DNA of 64,000 nucleotides from Escherichia phage vB_EcoM-fFiEco06, in the sequence record NC_054914.1. One strand, written 5' to 3'. The notes under the pieces were generated by a model. The model had not been told where the DNA came from, did not search any database, and saw only the letters and a program-made list of their open reading frames with translations. The position numbers were made by a program, and so were the translations under genes. Positions within the stretch are counted from its first letter, which is position 1; each line of letters starts with the position of its first letter. Below are positions 4,777 to 5,603 of this stretch, piece by piece.

Positions 4777-4853
4777 TGGTCGAGGCAGTAGGGATCGAAC
4801 CTACGACCCAGGACTTAGAAGGTCCTTGCTCTTCCTTCTGAGCTATGCCTCGT
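4777..4853 (-). tRNA. tRNA-Arg (anticodon UCU)
   Basis: Cloverleaf folded by hand: acceptor CGAGGCA/UGCCUCG, anticodon loop CUUCUAA, T-loop GGTTCGATC, 3' CCA encoded. Confidence 0.85.
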
Positions 4854-4856
4854 ATT

Positions 4857-4931
4857 TGGCGGACGTGATAGGATTCGAACCTATAACCAATCGCTTAACA
4901 GGCGATCGCTCTGCCATTGAGCTACACATCC
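4857..4931 (-). tRNA. tRNA-Asn (anticodon GUU)
   Basis: Acceptor GGAUGUG/CACGUCC, D-stem GCUC/GAGC, anticodon stem AUCGC/GCGAU, loop CUGUUAA, T-arm AUAGG-TTCGAAT-CCUAU, CCA encoded. Confidence 0.8.
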
Positions 4932-4935
4932 AAAT

Positions 4936-5022
4936 TGGTGGGGAGTGGTGGAGTCGAACCACCCGAGTCGCAATGACAATGAATTTACAGTCCACACCGC
5001 TACCTCTACGGGATAACTCCCC
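4936..5022 (-). tRNA. tRNA-Tyr (anticodon GUA), type II with long variable arm
   Basis: Acceptor GGGGAGU/ACUCCCC, anticodon loop CUGUAAA, long variable arm, T-arm GGUGG-TTCGACT-CCACC, CCA encoded. Confidence 0.75.
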
Positions 5023-5031
5023 AAATTAATT

Positions 5032-5106
5032 TGGTGGCCCTGGGTGGAATTGAACCACCATCTGGCGATTATGAGTCGCTTGCTTGAACCTTCCAGCTAC
5101 AGGGCC
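5032..5106 (-). tRNA. tRNA with genomic anticodon CAU (T4 tRNA-Ile homolog by position; Met also possible)
   Basis: Acceptor GGCCCUG/CAGGGCC, anticodon loop CUCAUAA, T-arm GGUGG-TTCAATT-CCACC, CCA encoded; sits next to tRNA-Thr as T4 tRNA-Ile does. Confidence 0.75.
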
Positions 5107-5107
5107 T

Positions 5108-5183
5108 TGGTGCTGATTGACGGAATCGAACCGCCGACCTTCTCATTACAAGTGAGTTGCTCTACCTACTGAGCTAAATCAGC
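5108..5183 (-). tRNA. tRNA-Thr (anticodon UGU)
   Basis: Acceptor GCUGAUU/AAUCAGC, D-stem GCUC/GAGC, anticodon loop CUUGUAA, CCA encoded. Confidence 0.85.
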
Positions 5184-5188
5184 AAAAC

Positions 5189-5278
5189 TGGCGGAGGCGA
5201 TAGGATTTGAACCTATGAGTCGCCGGAGCGACTGCCGGTTTTCAAGACCGGTGCATTAAACCACTCTGCCACGCCTCC
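5189..5278 (-). tRNA. tRNA-Ser (anticodon UGA), type II
   Basis: Acceptor GGAGGCG/CGCCUCC, anticodon stem CCGGU/ACCGG, loop CUUGAAA, long variable arm, CCA encoded. Confidence 0.8.
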
Positions 5279-5280
5279 AG

Positions 5281-5354
5281 TCTCCGTGGCAGGATTTGAA
5301 CCTACGACATTCTGCTCCCAAAGCAGACGCTCTACCAAACTGAGCTACACGGAG
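5281..5354 (-). tRNA. tRNA-Pro (anticodon UGG)
   Basis: Acceptor CUCCGUG/CACGGAG, anticodon loop UUUGGGA, T-arm GUAGG-TTCAAAT-CCUGC; CCA not encoded. Confidence 0.85.
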
Positions 5355-5364
5355 TAAATTAAAT

Positions 5365-5438
5365 TGGAGCGGATAATGAGAATCGAACTCACATCATCAG
5401 ATTGGAAGTCTGAGGTAATACCATTATACGATATCCGC
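5365..5438 (-). tRNA. tRNA-Gly (anticodon UCC)
   Basis: Acceptor GCGGAUA/UAUCCGC, anticodon stem UCAGA/UCUGA, loop CUUCCAA, CCA encoded. Confidence 0.85.
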
Positions 5439-5443
5439 AAATT

Positions 5444-5530
5444 TGGTGCGAGAAGTGGGACTCGAACCCACAAGGAAATCATTCCGCAGCATTTTAAGTG
5501 CTGTGCCTTTACCAATTTGGCCATTCTCGC
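5444..5530 (-). tRNA. tRNA-Leu (anticodon UAA), type II
   Basis: Acceptor GCGAGAA/UUCUCGC, anticodon stem CAGCA/UGCUG, loop CUUAAAA, long variable arm, CCA encoded. Confidence 0.85.
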
Positions 5531-5531
5531 G

Positions 5532-5603
5532 CTGGGAATAAAGGACTCGAACCTTTGCATCCTGGAATCAAAATCCAGTGCCTTACCAACTTGGCTAATT
5601 CCC
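5532..5603 (-). tRNA. tRNA-Gln (anticodon UUG)
   Basis: Acceptor UGGGAAU/AUUCCCA, anticodon stem CUGGA/UCCAG, loop UUUUGAU, T-arm AAAGG-TTCGAGT-CCUUU; CCA not encoded. Confidence 0.85.

Follow-up and report, generated by a model that had tools for sequence, protein, structure and literature searches.

In phage T4, the run of transfer RNA (tRNA) genes is interrupted by segB, a gene for a homing endonuclease, which raises the question of what stands at this place in related phages lacking it and what the tRNA genes found there are for. The question is considered here for Escherichia phage vB_EcoM-fFiEco06, of which a stretch of 64,000 nucleotides (nt) of the record NC_054914.1 (hereafter, the window) was analyzed. 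An earlier interpretation made from the letters alone (the sequence-only reading) had placed Tyr and Asn tRNA genes where T4 carries segB, in an alternative, seg-free allele with an expanded decoding set. The locus is almost certainly the segB-free RB3/RB14/T2-type allele of the T4-family (Tequatrovirus) tRNA region and, as proposed, it holds two tRNA species more than T4 and no endonuclease gene. Nothing contradicts this identification; its weak points bear on function only. At the same time, the arrangement is ordinary and already known, being published in 2008 and annotated in many genomes, and its value as a discovery is small.

The gene content was read directly from the DNA. ARAGORN, run on the whole window, finds ten tRNA genes, all on the minus strand at 4777–5604, in the transcript order Gln(UUG)-Leu(UAA)-Gly(UCC)-Pro(UGG)-Ser(UGA)-Thr(UGU)-CAU-Tyr(GUA)-Asn(GUU)-Arg(UCU). 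Folding by hand in the sequence-only reading had given the same genes, order and anticodons, and its cluster limits were a close match, save that the outer end lies at 5604 rather than 5603 and the spacers are of 0–10 nt rather than 1–10 nt. Nine of the ten genes pass the gathering score of the Rfam tRNA family (RF00005) with 60–74 bits (E-values 1e-11 to 1e-16), and tRNAscan-SE 2.0 scores the cluster tRNAs at 51–85 in the identical GenBank record MG781191. The minimum-energy folds of Asn, CAU and Arg are roughly cloverleaf (z −2.0 to −2.9). The CCA end is encoded in eight of the genes; Gln and Pro lack it and therefore need the CCA-adding enzyme of the host. The open reading frames (ORFs) drawn over the cluster, of 41–86 amino acids (aa), which the sequence-only reading took for artefacts, overlap the tRNA genes and are unannotated in MG781191. 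Neither the ORF list nor the alignment with T4, which shows no counterpart of segB, reveals a homing endonuclease ORF inside the cluster. The possibility that the Tyr–Asn interval hides an ORF was likewise rejected, since only short, tRNA-overlapping ORFs are found there and the identical record annotates none of them.

The comparison with T4 (NC_000866) defines the boundaries of the allele. T4 has eight tRNAs, not the same ten, in the order Gln-Leu-Gly-Pro-Ser-Thr-Ile(CAU)-segB-Arg-rnaD-rnaC, with the 666-bp (base pairs) segB between the CAU and Arg tRNA genes, just where the sequence-only reading had placed it. In the window, this interval is filled by Tyr and Asn with spacers of 4–9 nt and no endonuclease gene. 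The two genomes are nearly identical from upstream of Gln through Thr (identities of single genes are listed in Table 1) and then again from rnaD on, whereas the middle is diverged. Thus, the match of the first seven genes and the last one to the T4 set holds for anticodons and order but not for all of the sequences: the CAU and Arg genes are only 63% and 66% identical to those of T4 and, at the same time, 100% identical to those of T2. Therefore, the two phages carry different alleles of the whole block, CAU-Tyr-Asn-Arg in the window and Ile-segB-Arg in T4, and the alternative allele, real as it is, extends beyond the spacer to which it had been ascribed. The Ser and Ile genes of T4 do not encode the CCA end; the PM2 promoter, rnaD, rnaC and the terminator are shared by T4 and the window.

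The closest counterparts are found among other T-even and related phages. Over the 1.8 kb that include the cluster, the window shows 100% identity to the Escherichia phages vB_EcoM-fHoEco02, EC101 and UPWr_E2 and to the Yersinia phages PYps14T and PYps15T; the genomes of these phages are about 167 kb, vB_EcoM-fHoEco02 is classified as Tequatrovirus, and the annotated records list the same ten tRNAs. RB3 (NC_025419) has identical ten tRNAs in identical order, followed by rnaD and rnaC, with trna.2-4 upstream and no segB, and RB14 (FJ839692) shows the same ten in the same order. Over the 828-bp cluster, the identity to RB3/RB14 amounts to 97.6–98.2% (808/828 to RB3, i.e., about 20 substitutions); the window differs from RB3 by a 157-aa ORF situated between repeated terminators downstream of rnaC. 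In T2 (AP018813; T2L AJ880101 in PMC2330249), which is likewise segB-free, CAU, Asn and Arg are 100% identical to those of the window and Tyr is identical at 86/87 positions, but one ORF replaces Thr and another one replaces rnaD and rnaC, so nine tRNAs are left. In T6 (NC_054907), by contrast, segB directly follows Tyr in place of Asn, the CAU and Arg alleles are of the T4 type, and Pro and Ser are missing. Overall, segB is present in T4 and T6 and absent from T2, with which the CAU-Tyr-Asn-Arg block is shared. The eleven tRNAs of wV7 (NC_019505) follow the same order, Tyr, Asn, CAU and Thr being 100% identical to those of the window, but include an additional tRNA-His(GUG) and an Asn–Arg spacer of about 114 nt, whereas in RB51 a seg-like gene stands in place of Pro.

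The region was sequenced by Brok-Volchanskaya et al. in 2008 in T2L, RB1 and RB3 and described as segB-free, with tRNA-Met(CAU), Tyr, Asn and a different Arg (PMC2330249), so the allele proposed by the sequence-only reading is the published RB3/RB14/T2L type. The Ser gene of the window carries CCAG, as reported for the Ser gene of T2L (PMC2330249). The segB-free allele is at least as common in databases as the T4 arrangement: 80% or more of the CAU-Tyr-Asn-Arg block is found in 374 phage records, compared with 126 records for the T4 segB at the same cut-off. Among 60 rows evenly spaced down the ranking of 840 matching records, the uninterrupted 828-bp arrangement appeared in 9 and the 11-tRNA form with an added tRNA-His (wV7-like) in 10.

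The CAU-anticodon tRNA could be either an elongator tRNA-Met or an AUA-reading tRNA-Ile. ARAGORN, tRNAscan-SE and most GenBank records call it Met, and the T2L counterpart is named tRNA-Met in PMC2330249; still, the software assigns this label from the unmodified CAU alone, and an elongator tRNA-Met appears improbable here. The top full-length matches of the gene in E. coli (81.6%) are annotated as tRNA-Ile, it occupies the position of tRNA-Ile in T4, and the annotators of RB14 and RB51 name it Ile. In the comparison of codon usage between 58 long ORFs of the window and a 49-kb sample of E. coli K-12, the AUA codon is 4.0 times commoner in the phage. Its anticodon arm, GCGACUCAUAAUCGC, and the pairs C4-G69 and C5-G68 are those of E. 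coli tRNA-Ile2. Most likely, the CAU tRNA is of the tRNA-Ile2 type and would read AUA after a putative lysidine modification, which agrees with the Ile-type assignment made earlier from its position.

How the allele may work is suggested largely by the phages named above, since transcription, processing, cleavage by SegB and defence rescue are here carried over from the literature. By homology with T4, PM2 and promoters situated further upstream would drive one transcript comprising the ten tRNAs, then rnaD and rnaC, and ending at a hairpin terminator; host enzymes would cut this precursor into mature tRNAs. The Tyr and Asn species would add to the supply for the UAY and AAY codons, used by the phage about 1.5 times more often, and the Tyr species may make up for host tRNA-Tyr destroyed by tRNA-cutting defences. 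On co-infection with a phage that carries segB, the allele would be cut at the 3' end of Asn and converted, losing Asn (as in T6) or both Tyr and Asn (as in T4).

Several points weigh against this account. The Tyr gene does not reach the gathering score of the Rfam tRNA family, and its best Rfam match is tRNA-Sec with 30.9 bits, short of the threshold of 47 for that family; codon demand gives no reason to favour Tyr and Asn in particular; T-even phages can do without their tRNA regions in laboratory hosts (PMC2330249); and wild-type T6, with one copy of tRNA-Tyr, is still restricted by the Septu defence until the gene is amplified (PMC13096335).

As to the first point, long-arm phage Tyr tRNAs appear to fit the Rfam tRNA model poorly. 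The minimum-energy fold of the Tyr gene is not a cloverleaf either (z −1.1); folding of this kind is uninformative for Tyr, and covariation and the identity to T6 were therefore used instead. In the homologues found in rV5-like phages, in a plasmid and in E. coli, the acceptor, anticodon and T stems stay paired despite changes on both sides. The gene is scored at 51.2 by tRNAscan-SE 2.0 in MG781191 and is identical at 87/87 positions to the tRNA-Tyr of T6, which has been seen on northern blots and in tRNA fragment sequencing and is functional in vivo (PMC13096335). Hence the Tyr and Asn cloverleaves drawn by hand are both supported by software: ARAGORN calls both, with 74.1 bits in Rfam for Asn and the above tRNAscan-SE score for Tyr.

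The phage tRNA-Tyr is only 67% identical to the host tyrT and gives no blastn match on any E. coli chromosome (5426 genomes), yet it is common to rV5-like phages, T5-like phages and phage-like plasmids. Plasmid matches of 83–92% occur in 269 of the 5426 genomes, most of the plasmids listed being about 110 kb in size. In pEC881_2, the one plasmid examined (stretch 2921–3167), the Tyr homologue lies within an Asn-Tyr-Thr(-Ser) tRNA group. In rV5-like phages (Vequintavirus, an unrelated family; rV5_ev158 was compared), the counterparts of Tyr and CAU are 97% and 99% identical to those of the window and lie at 1363–1449 and 804–878 of the rV5_ev158 stretch, respectively, whereas the identity falls to 75% for Thr, 82% for Pro and 66% for Arg, and the genes stand in another order. 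This pattern suggests that single tRNA genes may have been exchanged recently between phage families.

Regarding the second point, the eight classical tRNAs read A-ending codons favoured by the AT-rich phage, at 1.7–6 times their use in E. coli. Besides AUA, these are AGA (5.9 times the E. coli sample), ACA (3.5), GGA (3.4), UCA (3.1), UUA (2.0), CCA (1.9) and CAA (1.7). The use of Tyr and Asn codons, which the sequence-only reading had named as a check, is in modest excess: both totals are 1.5 times those of E. coli (UAU alone 2.2, AAU alone 2.5), not above Lys, whose codons reach 1.6 times with no phage tRNA-Lys. Conversely, His codons are used at 0.5 times the E. coli level, and sister alleles carry a tRNA-His. 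Codon demand as the sole reason for Tyr and Asn was therefore rejected; supply is at best a part of the story for these two genes.

This leaves room for the explanation that Tyr and Asn are kept mainly as a counter-defence, replacing or out-titrating destroyed host tRNAs, with codon supply being secondary; the nucleases concerned would be Septu or PtuAB of retron-Eco7 for Tyr and AriB of PARIS for Asn and Thr. It is best regarded as a tentative possibility, somewhat less probable than its absence. Septu cleaves host tRNA-Tyr, and the T6 tRNA-Tyr, if overexpressed or amplified by SegB, restores infection (Chihara et al. 2026, PMC13096335); deletion of the T6 tRNA region brings about a greater sensitivity to Septu (PMC13096335). 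The window encodes the same Tyr molecule, and the occurrence of this gene in different phages and phage-like plasmids, distant as it is from tyrT and from the host chromosomes, also speaks for such a role, as does the addition of tRNA-His in sister alleles despite the under-use of His codons. However, Septu cleaves the phage tRNA as well, which is why one copy is insufficient in T6 and a single copy gives no escape. Unlike T6, with segB after Tyr, the window lacks segB, and therefore amplification of tRNA-Tyr by segB in cis would be unavailable to it.

For Asn, the argument turns on AriB, which cuts tRNA-Lys and tRNA-Thr(UGU) of E. coli and, with lower efficiency, also its tRNA-Asn(GUU) at U36AAUC/C41 (the slash marks the cut; PMC12409363). 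T5 versions of the tRNAs targeted by AriB rescue infection, and a change at position 39 abolished the cleavage of tRNA-Lys (PMC12409363). The Asn gene of the window reads U36-A-A-G39-C40-G41 (UAAGCG) vs. UAAUC/C in E. coli, i.e., it differs at positions 39 and 41, so one may hypothesize that this Asn allele resists AriB via these positions. Against a decisive role of Asn, T4 needs no Asn tRNA for its rescue from PARIS (PMC12409363), and the window possesses no tRNA-Lys, the main target of AriB. The tRNA-Asn of RB51 (stretch 1282–1356) is a different allele, 84% identical to that of the window; in its anticodon arm stands UAAUCA, which PMC12409363 gives as the motif cleaved by AriB in tRNA-Lys and tRNA-Thr.

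The same Asn gene harbors the site by which the allele is likely exposed to segB. The preferred 27-bp cleavage site of SegB lies at the 3' end of tRNA-Asn (PMC2330249), and the sequence found there in the window, the same as in T2, fits the consensus GGTTCRANTCC...CCAR. It differs from the copy in Ser at exactly G6, A16, G18, A26 and A27, the five bases stated for T2L (PMC2330249). The SegB consensus is present at six tRNA 3' ends in the window vs. none expected by chance. In T4 × T2L crosses, the Met, Tyr, Asn and Arg genes of T2L were replaced by the T4 version (PMC2330249), and the allele of the window would presumably be cleaved by SegB and converted in mixed infection in the same manner.

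Location of the SegB-consensus sites at tRNA 3' ends is compatible with one more explanation, in which the extra tRNAs are carried along without any selected function in a hot spot of recombination, where homing endonucleases and exchange between tRNA genes move them in and out. The mosaic gains and losses (no Thr in T2; no Pro, Ser and Asn in T6; no Pro in RB51; an additional His in wV7) and the dispensability of the region in laboratory crosses (PMC2330249) fit it as well. Nevertheless, Tyr, Asn, CAU and Arg are conserved at 99–100% across many otherwise diverged phages, their stems stay paired via compensatory changes, the block they form is kept in at least 374 records, and the T6 tRNA-Tyr has a measured phenotype (PMC13096335), which makes pure neutrality very improbable.

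Traces of shuffling are visible in the sister phages. The seg-like cassettes of T6 and RB51 share a leader (ATGACTCGTCGTGAGACGCTCAG...; 2150–2225 of the T6 stretch and 2300–2380 of the RB51 stretch), which stands directly after the CCAATTT of tRNA-Tyr in T6 and of tRNA-Gly in RB51; both CCAATTT junctions are unoccupied in the window (4932–4938 and 5359–5366). This pattern fits SegB-type cutting after CCAR with the loss of the next tRNA gene. The gene annotated as tRNA-Thr in T6 (stretch 2387–2461) starts as tRNA-Pro (TCCGTGTAGCTCAGT...), continues as Thr and gets no ARAGORN call; it appears to be a Pro/Thr recombinant in which Pro, Ser and the beginning of Thr were lost.

Table 1. Features of the tRNA region in the window (strand "-", minus strand; percentages are identities to the counterpart in the phage named).
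Feature	Position	Strand	Evidence and remarks
Putative PM2 middle promoter homologue	5674..5700	-	Transferred from T4 X03016; about 70 nt upstream of tRNA-Gln
tRNA-Gln (UUG), CCA not encoded	5531..5604	-	ARAGORN; Rfam 67.4 bits; 89% to T4, 100% to RB51
tRNA-Leu (UAA), CCA encoded	5444..5530	-	ARAGORN, Rfam; 99% to T4
tRNA-Gly (UCC), CCA encoded	5365..5438	-	ARAGORN, Rfam; 100% to T4; CCAATTT next
tRNA-Pro (UGG), CCA not encoded	5280..5354	-	ARAGORN, Rfam; 85% to T4
tRNA-Ser (UGA), CCA encoded	5189..5278	-	ARAGORN, Rfam; 97% to T4, whose copy lacks CCA
tRNA-Thr (UGU)	5108..5183	-	ARAGORN, Rfam; 96% to T4; 100% to wV7 and RB51
CAU-anticodon tRNA	5032..5106	-	ARAGORN, Rfam; 63% to T4 tRNA-Ile; 100% to T2, wV7 and RB51
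tRNA-Tyr (GUA), long variable arm	4936..5022	-	ARAGORN; tRNAscan-SE 51.2; under Rfam gathering score; 87/87 to T6
tRNA-Asn (GUU)	4857..4931	-	ARAGORN; Rfam 74.1 bits (top score of the cluster); 75/75 to T2
Putative 27-bp preferred SegB homing site, GGTTCGAATCCTATCACGTCCGCCAAA, 3' end of tRNA-Asn	4855..4881	-	Sequence match to published site
tRNA-Arg (UCU), non-T4 allele	4777..4852	-	ARAGORN, Rfam; 66% to T4, 100% to T2, 97% to wV7
rnaD homologue (species 2 stable RNA)	4656..4772	-	100 matches over about 116 nt to T4 rnaD (local alignment); RB3 annotation
rnaC homologue (species 1 stable RNA), tRNA-like T arm	4511..4649	-	137/139 identical to T4 rnaC
Intrinsic-terminator-like hairpin and T run, closing the tRNA/small-RNA unit	4437..4460	-	Terminator scan

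Within the part of the cluster shared with T4, the Gln tRNA deserves a separate remark: the 8 positions at which it differs from that of T4 all fall in the anticodon arm, and outside this arm the two genes are identical. Three stem pairs are swapped on both sides and the loop positions 32 and 38 are changed, as in the RB51 allele, which suggests either a gene conversion patch or selection acting on the anticodon arm.

The cluster lies between trna.2-4 and rnaD/rnaC, as in Tequatrovirus genomes, and its flanks align with T4; in MG781191, the flanking genes are trna.4, trna.3 and trna.2 upstream and e.8 to e.4 downstream. The putative PM2 homologue comprises a MotA-box-like TATGCTT (5700–5694) and a -10 element TATTAT (5679–5674), both conserved vs. 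T4, the two genomes being nearly identical across this stretch (the reference positions in X03016 are 3161–3167 for the -35 element of PM2, 3182–3187 for the -10 element and 3257 for Gln). The hairpin that closes the unit is at the same distance past rnaC as the potential terminator of X03016. In phage G9062, ARAGORN calls the stretch equivalent to rnaC as tRNA-???. The record MG781191 lists coding sequences for hypothetical proteins at 4400–4564 and 4567–4710 of the window, covering the terminator and the two small-RNA homologues, rnaC and rnaD; these are probably spurious calls on non-coding RNA genes.

Further downstream, a 36-nt terminator hairpin is duplicated (3873–3908 and 4428–4463, 94% identical, 555 bp apart), and the two copies bracket the 157-aa ORF on the minus strand (3913–4386), which is a member of PHROG 2280, a family of unknown function, and gives no match in Pfam. 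Since e.8 follows rnaC with no gene in between in T4 and RB3, this ORF looks like an inserted cassette; in the RB51 record, a 34-bp imperfect repeat surrounds its copy of the ORF. For trna.2, trna.3 and the 157-aa ORF, the Pfam search gave no usable match, and the families matched in PHROGs are all of unknown function. An apparent 430-bp insertion, suggested by phage matches covering the 1.8-kb query in two pieces with a span of about 2230 bp, was dropped, as G9062 is collinear with the window from the tRNAs to rnaC; the extra span is most likely an artefact of BLAST, which joined on a piece at the terminator duplication.

Overall, the allele offers a clean point of comparison, with a homing-endonuclease hot spot left unoccupied. 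Since the ten tRNAs and the SegB target are intact and its Tyr has the same sequence as a proven counter-defence tRNA, phages of this type are convenient recipients for SegB homing tests, and they would also be useful for asking if the T-even Asn tRNA protects against tRNA-cutting defences. A wider proposal, rather doubtful as a whole, is that the Tyr-Asn pair, with His in sister alleles, might constitute an anti-defence rather than a codon-supply module, in which the T2/RB3-type Asn (G39 and G41 vs. U39 and C41 of the host) would escape AriB-type cleavage and the RB51-type one (UAAUCA) would not. The spread of segB would then erase a counter-defence gene, because the preferred site of SegB lies in Asn. 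If true, a selfish endonuclease would be set against the evasion of immunity by the phage at one and the same locus.

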